Positions 35,711-45,813 of a stretch of DNA of 64,000 nt are shown here, in pieces (within the stretch, counting starts at the first letter, position 1; every line of letters starts with the position of its first letter). The translations under genes were made by a program, and so were the position numbers. Below the pieces are notes generated by a model. It saw only the letters and a program-made list of their open reading frames with translations, was not told where the DNA came from and did not search any database. The stretch is from an uncultured Bacteroidales bacterium (lineage in GTDB: Bacteria; Bacteroidota; Bacteroidia; Bacteroidales; Paludibacteraceae): the NCBI GenBank assembly GCA_934728255.1, contig CAKVEC010000005.1, positions 8,419-72,418 on the forward strand. The letters are read 5' to 3'.

Positions 35711-35852
35711 TTAGGTCTTTTAATTTGCAAGTGGCGTAGCGTATAACAGATTGGTGAGTACGCAGACAAAGCACTCAATCAAAATGCAAAAGATATGGAT
35801 TGGCAGTGTTAATTGCGGTGCTAATTGTCGTATTAATAATATGTTTGGCAAT

Positions 35853-36854
35853 ATGAAACTTTCAATCATTCACATTGTCCTTGGGGCAATCATTTTGGCG
35901 GGCATGAGTGCCTGCGCACGGCGGGAGCGTGTGGCTACAGAGCACCCTGTTGCCATTGTGGATTCGTTGCAACAGATAGTGGCGGAAGAGGTGCAAGCAC
36001 GTGTTAATCGCACTGAAGCCGAGTGGGGTGTCGGCATAATGATTGACACACACAGCGGGACGGTGGTGGCGATGTACGATACCGATTCCACACTTGTGCA
36101 TGCGCAGTCGGCATGGGAGTTGGGGAGTGTCGTCTCGCCATTGGCTCTGCTGGCGGCATATTCCGTAGAGCCACAGGGGTGGGATAGTGCTGTCGGGGTG
36201 TGCCGAAGTGGTTTTGACTATGCAGGACGTGTGTTTCGGGACGGACATGCGCGTGATGCAGTCTATTCGCTGTCCGATGCTATTGCTACGAGCAGCAAGG
36301 CAGCAGTTGTCCGATATATGCTTCGCGTGTTTGAGCAGCAGCCGGCATTACTGCCCGAGATACTTGCCAAGTGGGGCTTTGAGTTTGCAGCGCAGGATAG
36401 TGCGTGCGATGCTATGACCGAGACACTGGAGTATGCCACGGGCTACCATTGTACCATCACGCCTGGGCAACTCGCCTATCTGTATTCGTGTGTGGCTACG
36501 GGGCAGCACTTGCATGTTCCTGCCAGCGGGTTGGACTCTATCCGGTTGGGGTTGCACCGCGTGGTGTGGGATAATGATTTAGGCACGGCGAGCATCAATC
36601 CGTGGGATATGCGGAAGGCGCAAAGCGACAAGGTGCAGATTGCAGGCAAGACAGGGGCGGCGCAAATCTCCATGGGCGGGAACTATGCCGGTAATCACCA
36701 CCGTTTGTCTTTTGTCGGTTATTTCCCCGAAGCCAATCCGCAGTATACGTGTCTGGTTATTCTCAATAATCCCAAGTATTACGGCTATTACGAAGCAGGT
36801 GCCGATTGCGGCATTCCTGTCCGTCGTATTGCAGAAAAGATATCTACAGAATAG
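35853..36854 (+). CDS. Stand-alone PBP transpeptidase-fold lipoprotein with degenerate catalytic motifs
   Basis: Lipobox 'LAGMSAC'. It aligns to class B PBP motifs: 'GVGIMIDTHSGTVVAMYD', 'ELGSVVSP' (where ..GSxxKP is expected), 'ATSSKAAV' (where SxN is expected), 'AGKTGAAQ' (KTG retained) and 'SFVGYFPEANP'. Confidence 0.7.
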   Translation: MKLSIIHIVLGAIILAGMSACARRERVATEHPVAIVDSLQQIVAEEVQARVNRTEAEWGVGIMIDTHSGTVVAMYDTDSTLVHAQSAWELGSVVSPLALLAAYSVEPQGWDSAVGVCRSGFDYAGRVFRDGHARDAVYSLSDAIATSSKAAVVRYMLRVFEQQPALLPEILAKWGFEFAAQDSACDAMTETLEYATGYHCTITPGQLAYLYSCVATGQHLHVPASGLDSIRLGLHRVVWDNDLGTASINPWDMRKAQSDKVQIAGKTGAAQISMGGNYAGNHHRLSFVGYFPEANPQYTCLVILNNPKYYGYYEAGADCGIPVRRIAEKISTE

Positions 36855-36911: not shown

Positions 36912-37637
36912 ATGAAGAGGAAAAAGAAATATACGAAAAACAGGAGAAAGTACCACCAATTGCCTGCAATCCATAGGAAAAAACAGATTATTCCTATCGG
37001 TACCTCTGTGCAAGAATCGGTTACGGCTATAATATATCAAAGCGAATTGGATTATATCTCGCGCTGCATAATGGATTGCCCTCGGATAGAAACCGGTGGA
37101 CAATTATTTGGTTTCTACACAATGAAAGGAACTCCGGTGGTATGCTATGCGCTCGGGCCGGGATCGAATGCCAATCATCAGATTACATTCTTTAATCAGG
37201 ATATCCCCTATCTGCAGTCTAACGGAACGATCTTGGCAAAAGAGTTTGCTTTGCAGCATATCGGAGAATGGCACTCGCATCATAGTTTGGGATTGGATCA
37301 TCCCAGCAGTCATGATTCGCACACGATGATATCTGCTATCAATACACATCATCTGGGGACAATGCTCCTCTGTATAGGGGTATGCGATGCCGAAGGTGCC
37401 ACCATAAACGGCTTTCTGTATAGCGAGGGGCAAATTAATTATCCACAAGTAAACTGGATGATAAAAGCGCAAGAAAGTCCCTATCGCAAGATAGCCGACG
37501 AGCGATTGATTCGCTCTGTCGTTCATCCTATAACTACTATTCCTAAACTGAAAAAGATGCGAATTGCTACGATTACATTGGCTACAGGGCAGGATAATAA
37601 ATACTTGTTACGTGCATATACCGATTTACAACTATGA
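36912..37637 (+). CDS. JAB/MPN (JAMM) metallopeptidase
   Basis: 'ETGGQLFG' supplies the Glu and 'EWHSHHSLGLDHPSSHD' is the HxH...S..D JAMM signature. Confidence 0.8.
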   Translation: MKRKKKYTKNRRKYHQLPAIHRKKQIIPIGTSVQESVTAIIYQSELDYISRCIMDCPRIETGGQLFGFYTMKGTPVVCYALGPGSNANHQITFFNQDIPYLQSNGTILAKEFALQHIGEWHSHHSLGLDHPSSHDSHTMISAINTHHLGTMLLCIGVCDAEGATINGFLYSEGQINYPQVNWMIKAQESPYRKIADERLIRSVVHPITTIPKLKKMRIATITLATGQDNKYLLRAYTDLQL

Positions 37638-38086: not shown

Positions 38087-38266
38087 ATGGAAAAGAAAAT
38101 GTCACCACTGGCACAAGCCGTTCAGGAGGCACAACGCCCCCGTCCAACAATTGATTTGGTTTACAATTCTGACACAGGTGTGTTCTCGGAAACAGCAGCA
38201 GGAAGTGTTACGGAAGGTCTGCCCGTTACAGAAATCACTAAAGGAGGATTCGCATGTCGGAACTAA
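38087..38266 (+). CDS. 59-aa mini-ORF with near-C-terminal Gly-Gly, candidate modifier/precursor peptide (not in supplied ORF track)
   Basis: My translation is MEKKMSPLAQAVQEAQRPRPTIDLVYNSDTGVFSETAAGSVTEGLPVTEITKGGFACRN*. Its last 13 nt overlap the E1-like start at 38254. It shares a motif block with the N-terminus of ORF 39200. Confidence 0.45.
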   Translation: MEKKMSPLAQAVQEAQRPRPTIDLVYNSDTGVFSETAAGSVTEGLPVTEITKGGFACRN

Positions 38267-39183
38267 CAGAAAAGAAATATCCTTCGCGCGAGGAGTTTTA
38301 TTCTCGTGCAAAGGGTATCCTTGAAGTAGATATTTTGCGAAATAAGCGTGTGGCTATCATCGGGCTGGGGAGTTTCGGATCGCATATCGCAGTGGAGTTG
38401 GTAAAAGCAGGTGTGGAAACATTCCACCTGTTTGATTTTGATACGATAGAGGTGCACAATCTGGCTCGTCATACGGCTTCCGTCCATGACATCGGGCGGC
38501 TGAAAACAGATGTGATGAAGGATACTATATTGGGTAAGAATCCATATGCAACGGTGCATTTGTACCCGATAGATATTCATCTCAATCCTGGGCCGTTAAC
38601 CGCTTTATTGAAGGCGCAATTGATAGACCTTATTATATGTGCGACCGACAACAACTCCAGCCGGTACATTTTAGCCCAACTAGCAAGTGAGTACAATGTT
38701 ACTTGTATCTATGGGCGTGCTATCACGCGAGCAGAGGGAGGAGATGTCTTCATACAGCGTCCTGGAGAAGCCTGCTACTGCTGCTTGGTGGGCAATGATT
38801 GGTTTGATGCTGCAGACGAGGAGATTAGTGATGAAAACTCTGCGCGTAGAGATGGACGTATTCCAGCATACGCATCGGCAGAAGATGCCGATGTAATGGT
38901 ACAAGTGGGGTTGTCATCGGACATTATGCCTATCTGCAATATGATGGTCAAGTTGGCACTGATTGAACTATCCAGAGGACTCGAATCCGGTTTGCAGGAG
39001 TTGGAGAAAGAATTGCGGTTCAACTATTATATGTGGGCCAATCGGCGGGAACGGCGTCATAAGAACTGGGCTGCGTTCGGTGAAAGTGGCAGTTTGCCCA
39101 CAATTCTTCGATGGTATGGAGCACAAATCTCTAAGAAAGAGCATTGTGCAGTATGTTCGACTTCTATAGAATTGGAAATATAG
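38254..39183 (+). CDS. E1-like ThiF/MoeB-family adenylating enzyme
   Basis: 'FYSRAKGIL', 'RVAIIGLGSFGSHIAVELVKAGV', 'FDFDTIEVHNLARH', 'ICATDNNSSR' and 'ACYCCL'. Confidence 0.85.
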   Translation: MSELTEKKYPSREEFYSRAKGILEVDILRNKRVAIIGLGSFGSHIAVELVKAGVETFHLFDFDTIEVHNLARHTASVHDIGRLKTDVMKDTILGKNPYATVHLYPIDIHLNPGPLTALLKAQLIDLIICATDNNSSRYILAQLASEYNVTCIYGRAITRAEGGDVFIQRPGEACYCCLVGNDWFDAADEEISDENSARRDGRIPAYASAEDADVMVQVGLSSDIMPICNMMVKLALIELSRGLESGLQELEKELRFNYYMWANRRERRHKNWAAFGESGSLPTILRWYGAQISKKEHCAVCSTSIELEI

Positions 39184-39199: not shown

Positions 39200-39622
39200 A
39201 TGAATGATTTGAATGACATTGTTTTTAATCCCGAGACCGGGCTGTTTGAGAGCAAAACCAATATCACAGCCCACCTTACGGAGTGCCAAATACAGGGGGG
39301 TAGCAGAAGCCGTCGTATGATAGACCCCGCACGTGCTGCCTTGAAACCCGTCATAGTGGATTTTCGGGTAGAAGGCGGATATGAGCATAAGGTCGGATCT
39401 GAGGTATGTGTGCGTTGGCGTGTGGCAAATGCGCAGAAAATCATTATTCATTTCCACAATCACCGCGCATTGGAATATGATATGCAGGGTACTTTGCGGT
39501 TTGTTATGCCTGATGAGGATTGCAAGGTACGCTTGGTTGCAACGAATCAGGACGTAAAAACCCAAAGTACTATTTCCTTGATATCTCGTCGTCTAACCAT
39601 CTTCGACCGTTTATTCAGGTGA
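39200..39622 (+). CDS. Hypothetical protein: N-terminal GG-terminated module paralogous to the mini-ORF, plus a beta-rich C-terminal domain
   Basis: 'NDIVFNPETGLFES...LTECQIQGG' parallels 'IDLVYNSDTGVFSE...VTEITKGG'. The remainder ('KPVIVDFRVEGG...VCVRWRV...KIIIHF...CKVRLVATN') looks like an Ig-like sandwich, which is an inference. Confidence 0.5.
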   Translation: MNDLNDIVFNPETGLFESKTNITAHLTECQIQGGSRSRRMIDPARAALKPVIVDFRVEGGYEHKVGSEVCVRWRVANAQKIIIHFHNHRALEYDMQGTLRFVMPDEDCKVRLVATNQDVKTQSTISLISRRLTIFDRLFR

Positions 39623-43161: not shown

Positions 43162-44580
43162 ATGACACGAGAAGAACAATTGAAATTATGCTCTGTCTGC
43201 ACCCATCGTCAGATGGATATGCATAAAGGTATGTTGTGCGGACTGACTCAAAATGCCGCAAATTTTGAAGGCGAATGCCCTAACTTTGAGCAAGATGAGA
43301 AAGAATTCCAAAAACAGCAGCAGATTCAGCAAGAGATTATGAGTGATGAAGACCATACTGTTGGTGGTTGGTTGGCAATTTTTTTATGGCTCGGCATTGG
43401 AGGCGGTGCCTTGGCGAGTATAGTGACTACATGTTTGTCATTTAGTGATTTGTTGTTATCGACATGGCTTGTCGTTGCACAATTGGTTATTTTGCTTTGT
43501 TTGTGCACTATCGCAGTTAGCACAATCGTAGCCTTTTATAAGCGTCAACCCAATGCCAAAGCATTGGCATATACATATATTGCAACAATTGCAATAGATA
43601 GCGTCTTTGCTATTGCAATGTACTTCGCAATACCCGATGCTCAGGAAAGCAATCTTGTACACTCTATTCGTTCCATATTGTGGGGCGTGATATGGGGTAC
43701 ATATCTTGCCAGTTCAACACGTGTGGAGAATATCGTTCCGAAGCCACGCACATGGCAGATATTTGAGAAAATCTTGGCAGGTGTCATTGTGAGTATGTAT
43801 ATATTGATGGCTACTGTTACTATAGATATGCACAACAATGAAAATAGTATATTCTACAACCCGCGCCAAGTGGTTAAGACAATATTGCAAGAAATTAACA
43901 AAGACCTTCCATATCAGGATATTGACGGCGTCATTTCGCAGCGTCTGTTTTTGCAAAAAGATACAATTGTGTATCCGTACAAATTGACACAAACGGATAT
44001 CAAAGATTGTGTTGTAGAGGATTTGCAACTTACAGGTATGCACACAAAACAATCAATACTTCAAGAAGTTGCATTACAATCACCGGATGCCACCCTATCG
44101 GGGCATGAGTATTTCTTCGAGCATAACTACAGCGTGTCTTTCCGCTATTATGACAAATGGAATACTCTGTTGTATTCAGTCGCAATTACCCCTGAAGATT
44201 ACACGAATGCGCTTGCTGCTGGTAATCAATTCCGATGTGACGAAGCAGATTTTCAAAAGGCAGAAGATATTGTCAAGACATTGTTGCCCATTGCATATCT
44301 TGGAGAAGGTGCCGAGTTGACAGATATCCGTCATACACATGATAACCTATACTACGTGATTCGATTTAAGGATATGTATTTCGCAGACGTGTGCCAAATA
44401 GATAAGTCTTACTTCCGACAGACTATATTGTCTCATTTCGCGGAGTTGGAAGATGCTGTGGTCTCAATGGCGGAAATGAATCGGATGAACATTGTGTTTT
44501 CGTTGTGCGGTATAGACTCCGATAGAACTATAGACATAGTCATTACCCCGCAAGATTATATACAGACTGTCGAAAAATAA
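43162..44580 (+). CDS. Membrane protein: Cys-rich N-terminal knuckle, multi-pass TM core, unknown C-terminal domain
   Basis: 'CSVCTHRQ...CGL...GECPNF', then the TM stretch 'GGWLAIFLWLGIGGGALASIV...'. A 7-nt gap separates it from the helicase gene. Confidence 0.55.
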   Translation: MTREEQLKLCSVCTHRQMDMHKGMLCGLTQNAANFEGECPNFEQDEKEFQKQQQIQQEIMSDEDHTVGGWLAIFLWLGIGGGALASIVTTCLSFSDLLLSTWLVVAQLVILLCLCTIAVSTIVAFYKRQPNAKALAYTYIATIAIDSVFAIAMYFAIPDAQESNLVHSIRSILWGVIWGTYLASSTRVENIVPKPRTWQIFEKILAGVIVSMYILMATVTIDMHNNENSIFYNPRQVVKTILQEINKDLPYQDIDGVISQRLFLQKDTIVYPYKLTQTDIKDCVVEDLQLTGMHTKQSILQEVALQSPDATLSGHEYFFEHNYSVSFRYYDKWNTLLYSVAITPEDYTNALAAGNQFRCDEADFQKAEDIVKTLLPIAYLGEGAELTDIRHTHDNLYYVIRFKDMYFADVCQIDKSYFRQTILSHFAELEDAVVSMAEMNRMNIVFSLCGIDSDRTIDIVITPQDYIQTVEK

Positions 44581-44970: not shown

Positions 44971-45813
44971 ATGAAAACGGGACTGGTGCTGGAAGGCGGC
45001 GGAATGCGCGGAATTTATACCTGCGGAGTGTTGGATATCATGATGGACAAGGGCTTTGAACCCGATGTGCTGTGCGGTACATCAGCGGGTGCGCTTTTTG
45101 GTGTCAACCTTCCGTCCAAGCAACGTGGCAGAGCCTTTGATTACAACTATCGTTACTGCGACAATCCCGACTATGTCTCCATTCGTTCCCTCATTCGCAC
45201 GGGTAATATGGTGAATGTGGATTTTTCGTACAACCGTATTCCCAACGAGTTGGCTCCGTTTGACGAAGTCGCATACGAAGCCTCGAAAACCCAAGTCTTC
45301 GCTACCGTAACCAACGTAAAAACAGGCAAAGCCGAATACAAGCATATCGAAAATTGTATGACGCAAATAGACTGGCTCCGAGCATCGGGTACGTTGCCGT
45401 TTATTTCCCATAGGGTGCATATCGGTGAGAATGAGTACTTGGATGGCGGATTGGTGGACAATATCCCGCTGGATAAAGCGTTTGAGGAGGGCTGCGACAA
45501 GGTGATTGTGGTGCTGACGCGCCCCATTGAGTTCCGTCTGAACGAGCACATGTATTTGCTCAGCAAGATATTTTATCCGCAAGAAAAGAACCTGCAACAG
45601 GCATTGCGTGTGCGCAGTGCGAACTACAACAAACGTATGCAGCAGGTGCGCCAACTGAAGGAGGAAGGCAAGATTTTTGTATTCTCGCCCGAAACATTGT
45701 TGCCCGTGCGCCGTTTGGAGCGCAATCCGCTCCACCTCAAACAAATCTACCACCTCGGTCTCCGTGATGCCACCCGCGAATGGAGTAAACTGGAAAACTA
45801 TCTGCAAAAATAA
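44971..45813 (+). CDS. Patatin-like phospholipase
   Basis: 'LVLEGGGMRGIYTCGVLD' (oxyanion GGG.RG), 'GTSAGA' (GxSxG) and 'DGG' (the catalytic Asp motif). Confidence 0.85.
   Translation: MKTGLVLEGGGMRGIYTCGVLDIMMDKGFEPDVLCGTSAGALFGVNLPSKQRGRAFDYNYRYCDNPDYVSIRSLIRTGNMVNVDFSYNRIPNELAPFDEVAYEASKTQVFATVTNVKTGKAEYKHIENCMTQIDWLRASGTLPFISHRVHIGENEYLDGGLVDNIPLDKAFEEGCDKVIVVLTRPIEFRLNEHMYLLSKIFYPQEKNLQQALRVRSANYNKRMQQVRQLKEEGKIFVFSPETLLPVRRLERNPLHLKQIYHLGLRDATREWSKLENYLQK

Follow-up and report, generated by a model that had tools for sequence, protein, structure and literature searches.

The stretch of DNA considered here, hereafter the window, comprises 64,000 nucleotides from an uncultured Bacteroidales bacterium of the Paludibacteraceae (GenBank assembly GCA_934728255.1, contig CAKVEC010000005.1, positions 8,419 to 72,418 of the forward strand). 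On its plus strand, it carries a cassette of five closely packed genes that code, in this order, for a JAB metallopeptidase, an E2-like protein, a peptide of 59 amino acids (aa), an E1-like adenylyltransferase of the ThiF type, and a protein of 140 aa (Table 1). This order, with a tagged protein in the last position, is retained across related loci; the flanking genes vary. The open reading frames (ORFs) of the 59-aa peptide and the 140-aa protein exist as given in a preliminary description of the window, and the latter is a real and conserved gene, the product of which is cytoplasmic and has no signal peptide. The preliminary description saw in both products one module of about 33 aa ending in Gly-Gly (GG) and took the longer product for a possible ubiquitin-fusion-like precursor. 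The element that they share is smaller. It is a β-hairpin that lies within the 59-aa peptide, the presumed E1 substrate (hereafter the modifier), and heads the 140-aa protein as well as unrelated proteins of related loci.

The relationship between the two proteins of the window is visible in pairwise comparison, with E=0.002 and 10/32 identities in BLASTP and a Smith-Waterman score of 42 against 22.8 +/- 4.1 for shuffled sequences (p about 0.001). Profile-profile alignment (hhalign) of 30 mini-peptides with 12 homologues of the 140-aa protein gives a probability of 91.8% and E=7.3e-7 over 22 columns, so the similarity survives in homologues and is not a chance match. The aligned region pairs residues 21-42 of the peptide with residues 3-24 of the 140-aa protein only, and it stops short of the GG by 9 residues. 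What the two proteins have in common is therefore the hairpin, with the consensus [DE]-[LI]-V-[YF]-N-x-x-T-G-x-F-E over about 13-20 aa, and not a GG-terminated module of 33 aa. Of the two paralogous modules originally proposed, the hairpin part is thus real, but the TE...I...GG part lies outside the 22-column homology. A hidden Markov model (HMM) built from modifier hairpins alone also matches the 140-aa protein of the window (residues 8-18, E=0.004).

On the precursor reading, the GG of the 140-aa protein should be conserved. An alignment of homologues shows it to be retained only at identities of at least 86%, that is, in the window and in the homologues P0001-P0003. In P0004-P0007 (64-69% identity), its position is occupied by ED, AN, SV or KI, and it is absent from all more distant homologues (P0016-P0018, P0020, and those of the related loci L014 and L015). 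The conserved EG..VT.MT.xG[FY]A segment of the modifier has no counterpart in the 140-aa family. As judged from these alignments, the GG is a clade-specific accident. It is also located in a linker that is predicted to be disordered. Since the homology is limited to the hairpin and the GG is not conserved, the reading of the 140-aa protein as a cleavable precursor of the ubiquitin type, put forward in the preliminary description, is not supported.

The modifier is represented by 41 homologues from a profile search and by 97 distinct sequences once metagenomic loci are added. It has no Pfam or NCBIfam match. An AlphaFold2 (AF2) model based on 30 sequences consists of one helix (residues 7-15), one hairpin (22-27/32-37), and a disordered tail. 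The model is of low confidence (predicted template modelling score, pTM, 0.29); with these elements, the modifier is not predicted to be a β-grasp protein. Within the hairpin, L24, T30, G31 and F33 are invariant and N27 nearly so. Downstream of it, G44, V47, T48, G54 and A56 are invariant or nearly invariant.

The C-terminus of the modifier has the form x-G-[FY]-A, with a conserved E-G-x-x-V-T-x-M-T stretch upstream. In 52 of the 97 distinct modifiers, the stop codon directly follows the Ala of G-[FY]-A, in 21 there are 1-3 further residues, and one has a 14-residue tail. The reading frame runs on into a long protein in 19/97, and 4/97 do not match the x-G-[FY]-A pattern. The residue ahead of the invariant Gly varies (E 24, G 22, K 19, N 15, D 11 and Q 2 among 93 modifiers), and for this reason GG is not the conserved feature of the modifier. 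The reading of the mini-ORF as a GG followed by a 5-aa tail thus has to be replaced by one in which G-[FY]-A is the conserved end.

In-frame fusions of modifier and E1 occur in about 20 loci, for instance L056:10470-11915 (481 aa; Pfam ThiF 7e-29). Their junction (...ENGFA|CSP..., in general form ...GFA|C/A) coincides exactly with the conserved C-terminus, which fits a substrate that is released by JAB at the GFA junction. Three further ORFs (L066:1285-1947, L086:3597-4085 and L079:18-476) each encode a modifier ending in GFA, one or two tags (RYNDATGEFE), a proline-rich stretch and a transmembrane (TM) segment. By their sequences, these look like a gene-encoded N-terminal conjugate of modifier and client. 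The invariant G-[FY]-A, the tails of 0-3 residues and the fusions at that junction lead us to infer that the peptide acts like an E1 substrate, the mature end of which could be either ...G or ...G[FY]A. In L073, free and E1-fused copies of the modifier are both present.

The 140-aa family is represented by an alignment of 12 sequences. Seven close homologues were available, a profile search run against 1.84 billion representatives added P0016-P0018 and P0020, and two Paludibacteraceae genomes supplied further members. The N-terminal hairpin motif is the best conserved portion of the family, with N10, P11, G14, L15, F16 and E17 invariant. In an AF2 model based on 8 sequences (mean predicted local distance difference test score, pLDDT, 78), the hairpin strands span residues 7-10 and 15-18 with a pLDDT of 63-69. 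The Ig-like sandwich that had been suspected beyond the basic linker is borne out by a confident seven-stranded prediction. A Foldseek search of the PDB returns PKD, Ig and FN3 domains (top match the PKD domain of 1l0q, E=1.7e-4), and among the BFVD viral models, the sandwich matches Ig-like virion decoration domains. These matches to PDB and viral structures are generic Ig/PKD/FN3 ones and provide no functional clue, and the assignment as PKD/Ig holds at the level of the fold, with no Pfam PKD match above threshold.

The sandwich domain recurs as tandem repeats in other proteins. One of these, P0020 (542 aa), has an N-terminus of the 140-aa type followed by five sandwich domains. In P0030 and in multi-repeat proteins, the sandwich is found without the hairpin, and the hairpin is therefore not one of its strands. 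The N-terminal segment is separate from the C-terminal domain also in that a linker of low confidence lies between them and hairpins occur on non-Ig proteins. An integral or edge strand of the sandwich was considered for this segment and ruled out, as tag and domain each occur alone. P0020, P0023, P0030 and the sequences of alignment A6 all keep the F/I-x-R-L/I-F pattern of the short C-terminal helix.

A profile search with the E2-like protein recovered related loci, 4 of them genomic and 80 metagenomic. The genomic loci belong to Bacteroidales UBA7569, another Bacteroidales metagenome-assembled genome and two Paludibacteraceae. Most of the metagenomic loci derive from samples of the human gut and of the rumen. 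After gene calling and clustering, JAB, E2 and E1/modifier were present in 89 loci. Proteins of these loci were scanned for the hairpin with a regular expression applied to their first 45 residues and with an HMM from 34 modifier hairpins (17 aa). The regular expression finds 86 proteins beyond the modifiers, with 46 distinct tags, all on the strand of the system and downstream of the E2 gene. Of the 53 loci in which the sequence extends at least 3 kb past the E1 gene, 49 encode a tagged partner, and none of the 356 opposite-strand genes of the loci carries the hairpin in the same scan. At E<=1e-3, the modifier-only HMM reports 33 partner sites, and their number rises to 69 at E<=0.1, again all on the system strand; 59 of the 69 lie within the first 20 residues of the protein. 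The aromatic residue of the tag stands 3-8 residues from Met1 in 39/46 distinct partner tags, as compared with 23-30 residues in modifiers.

The tag is present on at least 12 unrelated protein families. Besides the Ig-like family of the window (23 loci), these include proteins that contain 3-5 Ig-like repeats, numerous small proteins composed of the tag, a low-complexity linker and a TM segment (one family of them having a DnaJ-type zinc-finger domain), an acyl-carrier protein (ACP; Pfam PP-binding 3e-14), a protein that is DnaK-like (NCBIfam DnaK 4e-34) and has TPR repeats, and a helical protein of 95 aa whose gene lies between those of E2 and modifier. Some partners bear two or three tags. 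Because the same hairpin heads unrelated partners in 49/53 loci and 0/356 opposite-strand genes, it is, on the evidence of these scans, a portable recognition tag common to the modifier peptide and to client proteins. This outcome agrees with an alternative that the preliminary description had offered, a docking or recognition peptide with the GG as a mere hinge, in that the hairpin is the most conserved part and recurs at the N-termini of unrelated neighbours. The tagged ACP is encoded at L032:12832-13110 and L017:10129-10464, where its neighbours are a DUF4407 protein and an Ig-repeat protein that is also tagged.

Larger relatives of the cassette have a longer JAB and a longer E1, and in 33 loci a ClpB-like AAA+ gene is located immediately 3' of the E1 gene. 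The minimal cassette of the window and its clade (the 23 loci with an Ig-like partner) have no ClpB-like or DnaK-like gene. Examples of the ClpB-like double-AAA+ protein are found at L017:6797-9400 and in L031 and L045; the gene of the tagged DnaK-like protein with TPR repeats comes next in 8 loci.

The three enzymes are assigned with different degrees of certainty. The translation of the JAB gene, which belongs to family F0 and is kept in 89 loci, shows the motif E...HSHH...SSHD. The E1 resembles MoeB (1.7e-15), MccB (5e-11), UBA5 (2e-10) and Cap2 (3e-8) in sequence searches of the PDB. For the E2-like protein, C97 and H98 are invariant among 8 diverse homologues, and an hhalign comparison of its profile with the single human UBE2D2 sequence places C97 on the catalytic Cys, a weakly supportive result (E=0.036, probability 1.4%). 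Searches of PDB sequences gave no useful match for the E2, whether as a single sequence or as a profile, or for JAB, and a scan of IMG/VR viral contigs found no relative of the E2. No model of their own was found for the peptide, the E2 and the Ig-like protein in Pfam, NCBIfam, PADLOC or PHROG, and no account of a peptide modifier with a hairpin motif or of such a system was found in the searchable literature. That family models and papers are missing holds for the libraries searched and is no proof of novelty.

Table 1. Features of the cassette and of its immediate surroundings (window coordinates; residue numbers refer to the respective protein).
Feature	Position	Strand	Remarks
PBP-like transpeptidase-domain protein, membrane-anchored	35751-36854	+	Pfam PF00905 in L001
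JAB/MPN metallopeptidase, 241 aa, cassette gene 1	36912..37637	+	PADLOC JAB E=3.6e-14; Pfam Prok-JAB E=0.0056
E2-like protein, 142 aa	37634..38062	+	PADLOC E2 model E=5e-4; Cys97-His98 ('ICHY')
Modifier peptide, 59 aa, presumed E1 substrate	38087..38266	+	helix, hairpin tag, flexible tail ending ...TKGGFA-CRN
Hairpin tag within modifier, residues 22-37, IDLVYNSDTGVFSETA	38150..38197	+	AF2 strands, highest pLDDT of the peptide
Conserved C-terminal G54-F55-A56 of modifier	38246..38254	+	G54 and A56 invariant; F/Y55 conserved
CRN, clade-specific 3-aa tail of modifier	38255-38263	+	overlaps E1, start codon at 38254
E1-like adenylyltransferase, 309 aa, ThiF/MoeB type	38254..39183	+	CxxC...CxxC; Pfam ThiF E=3.8e-30
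Tagged Ig-like protein, 140 aa, final cassette gene	39200..39622	+	family F4, immediately 3' of E1 in 23 loci
N-terminal hairpin tag, residues 3-24, core DIVFNPETGLFE at residues 6-17	39206..39271	+	hhalign to modifier hairpin
Basic linker, predicted disordered, residues 25-48	39272..39343	+	AF2, pLDDT 47-52; holds the GG
GG in linker, residues 33-34	39296-39301	+	alignment columns variable, with indels
PKD/Ig/FN3-like β-sandwich, residues 49-131	39344..39592	+	AF2, 7 strands, pLDDT about 90
Short C-terminal helix, residues 134-139, IFDRLF	39599..39616	+	AF2
DUF4011/AAA_11/AAA_12 helicase with C-terminal MTES_1575 nuclease domain, 1134 aa	39750-43154	+	PADLOC PDC-S37 E=1.8e-287; Hhe 8e-138

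The genes around the cassette differ between loci. The helicase-nuclease gene lies 3' of the cassette in the window and, split in two, in L021, and it is absent from that place in L001, L013, L016 and L022. Its membership in the cassette was considered and rejected, as most related loci have other genes there; it is an independent defence gene of the same island. The gene of the penicillin-binding protein (PBP)-like transpeptidase lies directly upstream of JAB in the clade of the window and is found in 16 loci overall, in differing positions. These include L057, L058, L071, L072, L078 and L024, in the last of which it is located immediately 3' of E1; in another clade, it lies downstream of tagged TM genes. 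Its shifting positions in 16 loci suggest a functional link between the transpeptidase and the cassette.

Further downstream in the window, a 472-aa membrane protein (43162-44580, plus strand) has, as seen by eye, a Cys-rich N-terminus like that of a 193-aa protein (L001:2126-2707), with the common pattern MTREEQLK.C..CTHR.MDMHKG.LCGL...CPNFEQD. In loci of the L001 type, the gene for the 193-aa protein lies upstream of the cassette. A 280-aa ORF (44971-45813, plus strand) shows patatin-like motifs (GGGMRG ... GTSAG) on inspection of its translation.

Recurring neighbours in the related loci are of the conflict-system type: TPR+CHAT (caspase-like), GNAT+TPR and TerB-domain proteins, UvrD-like helicases and Sel1-repeat proteins. 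Examples are L056:13032-16196 together with 10 other loci, L057:8081-8881 and L046:12765-13139. A DUF4407 gene is found among the neighbours of the larger relatives, and DarT adjoins L019. In the Ig-tagged clade, the cassette is followed by a large TM/TPR-like protein in both L014 (8108-11262) and L015 (8196-10439) and by an MreB/HSP70-like protein in L005 (3202-4617). An ADP-ribosylglycohydrolase-like protein comes next in L005 and L014 and is, by eye, apparently fused to the large protein in L015. It is possible that the recurrent post-cassette genes of this clade form an extended module.

Among known systems, the Cap2/Cap3 branch is nearest to the cassette by enzyme similarity, and the Bil operons are nearest by gene content. 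At the level of models, its E1 and JAB score best against those of the Cap2/Cap3 type from type II CBASS (the anti-phage signalling system that is based on cyclic oligonucleotides), with PADLOC E-values of up to 2e-26 for the E1 against Cap2-type 'E1-E2' models and of 3.6e-14 for JAB. There are also sub-threshold NCBIfam matches to 6A-MBL cap2_3, Cap3 and ICE_VC0181. In CBASS, the E1 is described as activating the disordered conserved C-terminal tail of a non-β-grasp protein, and JAB as cutting precisely at that C-terminus (bioRxiv 10.1101/2022.03.31.486616); the flexible peptide of the cassette with its G-[FY]-A end would match such tail activation. However, neither the cassette genes nor their neighbours in the window match a CD-NTase or CBASS effector model in Pfam or PADLOC, and because it has no CD-NTase, the cassette is not CBASS. 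In further contrast to CBASS, E1 and E2 are encoded by separate genes, the substrate is a free peptide of 54-59 aa, and a hairpin tag is common to the clients; such a tag has not been described for CBASS.

With the Bil operons, which comprise BilA (ubiquitin-like protein, Ubl), BilB (E2), BilC (JAB deubiquitinase) and BilD (E1), the cassette shares the gene set. Bil corresponds to families 6c/6d of Iyer et al. 2006, and in the 6d E2s, a His on the C-terminal side of the catalytic Cys is conserved (PMC1779556); Cys97-His98 of the cassette E2 would be the counterpart. Type II BilA is reported to have a conserved Gly followed by up to 9 non-conserved residues that are removed by JAB (PMC10557695). 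In the cassette, by contrast, the [FY]-A that follows the invariant Gly is itself conserved. The Bil modifier has been defined as a Ubl with 1-3 β-grasp domains (PMC11601603), whereas the modifier of the cassette is not β-grasp in its AF2 model and is too short for such a fold. The cassette further differs from Bil in its E1, which is of the single-domain ThiF type (309 aa), and in its extra tagged client gene. No chain named Bil was among the PDB sequence matches of the cassette E1, E2 or JAB; no Bil profile was compared.

The principle of one small module on both modifier and partner has a precedent in the FtsH ternary conflict systems, where Ubl and effector alike are described as carrying the effector-associated domain EAD1 (Kaur, Burroughs, Iyer, Aravind 2020, eLife; PMC7159879). 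As in the cassette, one module is found on the modifier and on variable operon partners, and recruitment is implied. The EADs, as described there, are helical, Death-like domains of about 90 residues, whereas the module of the cassette is a β-hairpin of 13-20 residues with a motif of its own. There is no sequence or fold relationship between EADs and the hairpin tag.

In eukaryotes, ubiquitin is made in fusion precursors (polyubiquitin and fusions of ubiquitin with ribosomal proteins), and there are also proteins with an integral ubiquitin-like domain (UBL), such as Rad23, Dsk2 and parkin. By analogy, the 140-aa protein would be closer to the integral UBL class, as an uncleaved and non-activatable N-terminal copy of the recognition surface of the modifier. 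The counterparts of the fusion precursors would be the mini-peptides that are fused to E1 or TM proteins. Unlike the eukaryotic UBL proteins, the family has no β-grasp fold, the hairpin is the only common part, and the parallels in function are putative. Disordered peptides are used as modifiers in the Pup and UBact systems, in the former of which Pup is ligated by PafA, a glutamine-synthetase-like enzyme, via the side chain of its C-terminal Glu. The likeness to Pup and UBact lies in the size of about 55-65 aa, the largely disordered state and a conserved C-terminal motif. In contrast to Pup, the cassette uses E1, E2 and JAB, and there is no sequence similarity.

From all this evidence, which is computational throughout, the balance tips slightly towards the 140-aa protein being a dedicated client, marked by the tag, of an E1-E2-JAB conjugation cassette that works with a peptide, and most likely an acceptor of this peptide. 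The E1 would presumably activate the 59-aa peptide at its G-F-A C-terminus, and one component of the cassette (E1, E2 or JAB) would read the hairpin in modifier and client alike. On the modifier, the tag would serve its loading, with adenylation and transfer to the E2; on the Ig-like protein, it would bring the protein to the charged enzymes, most likely as the peptide acceptor. The acceptor site could be the nearby N-terminal amine or a lysine of the linker, and the GG of the linker would be without function and not a cleavage site. We infer peptide activation and conjugation by analogy with Cap2/Cap3, and likewise the identity of the tag reader and the acceptor role of the tagged protein. 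Extended to the whole family, this leads to a more tentative proposal, which may well be wrong but is a real possibility: an undescribed conjugation system that Bacteroidales of gut and rumen would have along with other uncultured bacteria, with a flexible modifier of about 55 aa and a 13-aa hairpin tag that directs conjugation to clients. The tag would act as an address that guides the modifier to the Ig-like proteins, the membrane mini-proteins, the ACP and the DnaK-like protein, possibly at their N-terminal amine, and JAB would both mature the fusions of modifier with E1 or client and reverse the conjugation.

Several observations weigh against a client role of the 140-aa protein and against a common reader of the tag. 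Partner and modifier tags differ at two positions: K, R or H precedes TG in 24/46 partner tags and in 0/34 modifier tags, and E follows F in 40/46 as opposed to 16/34. The two kinds of tags are thus under somewhat different constraints and may not be read identically. The ClpB-like protein could be the true reader of the tag in the larger relatives. A candidate acceptor lysine, K49, is invariant within the Ig family only, and no lysine is common to all tagged families. Among the three enzymes, the E2 is the least secure assignment, its sequence evidence being weak. Gene calling was crude, with ATG starts only and a greedy choice of ORFs, and many of the 89 loci are near-duplicates.

Other explanations of the shared hairpin can be weighed against the same evidence. 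The hairpins of modifier and partner might pair with each other by β-sheet formation, which would make the tagged protein a recruited effector or adaptor and not an acceptor. This we regard as rather unlikely, but it has something to commend it. It would resemble the presence of EAD1 on both Ubl and effector in the FtsH ternary systems (PMC7159879), there are effector-like partners, many small TM proteins and neighbours such as CHAT+TPR, TerB and DUF4407 proteins, and the tandem tags of some partners suggest multivalency. However, a 13-aa hairpin offers very little surface for specific homotypic pairing, the EADs known so far are helical and span about 90 aa, and the differences between modifier and partner tags fit such pairing no better than they fit a shared reader. 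A smaller chance, which makes it distinctly improbable, is given to a hairpin that is read downstream by an unfoldase or chaperone (ClpB-like, DnaK-like, or of the host), with the tagged proteins as constitutive carriers of the signal. The ClpB-like gene right after E1 in 33 loci and the tagged DnaK-like protein in 8 loci argue for it, as does the mostly disordered modifier, which is like Pup in this regard; integral N-terminal UBL proteins or the recognition of Pup by Mpa would be analogous. The 23 loci of the window's clade, on the other hand, have no ClpB-like or DnaK-like cassette gene, so the reader would there have to be a housekeeping protein.

The tagged Ig-like protein might also be a pseudo-substrate that fills the modifier site on E1 or E2 and keeps the system off until a trigger arrives. 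Its tag is homologous to the docking part of the modifier, and without the G-F-A end it would not be activatable; the trigger could be a phage component bound by the Ig-like fold, which is similar to virion decoration domains of phages. We hold this to be very unlikely, as the tags on the ACP, the DnaK-like protein and many TM proteins would be hard to explain. Even less weight falls on the ubiquitin-fusion-like precursor, in which JAB would cut after GG34 and free a second modifier of about 3.5 kDa, paralogous to the mini-ORF product. The similar spacing of GG and hairpin in the two proteins of the window speaks for it, and in-frame modifier fusions do exist in the family, but these join the mini-peptide to E1 or TM proteins; moreover, the GG is lost below about 86% identity, the homology ends 9 residues short of it, and the 140-aa family has neither the x-G-[FY]-A end nor the E-G-x-x-V-T-x-M-T stretch, which reduces this option to a bare residual chance. 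Practically no room is left for a chance similarity or for an N-terminal segment that merely forms an edge strand of the Ig-like sandwich. Taken by itself, the pairwise match is indeed weak (E=0.002 over 32 residues). Against these options stand the profile-profile result (E=7e-7), HMM and regular-expression matches that occur only on the system strand and at N-termini, a domain that occurs without the tag, a tag that occurs on unrelated folds, and the low-confidence linker between them.

True ubiquitin-like conjugation has recently been shown for bacterial E1-E2-JAB systems (CBASS type II, Bil and Bub), most of which function in phage defence. To our knowledge, the modifier in these systems is always a β-grasp protein or the tail of an enzyme, and their choice of targets is largely unexplained. 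If the 140-aa protein is a tagged client, the cassette of the window would introduce a third type of modifier, namely a short peptide that is mostly disordered, and it would offer a readable targeting code in the form of a tiny hairpin common to the modifier and to varied proteins of the operon. Metagenomes of the human gut and the rumen commonly contain the system, yet no Pfam, NCBIfam or PADLOC model covers its specific parts. Its hairpin code would point directly to candidate targets and effectors and would thereby open target selection to tests with peptides and point mutants.

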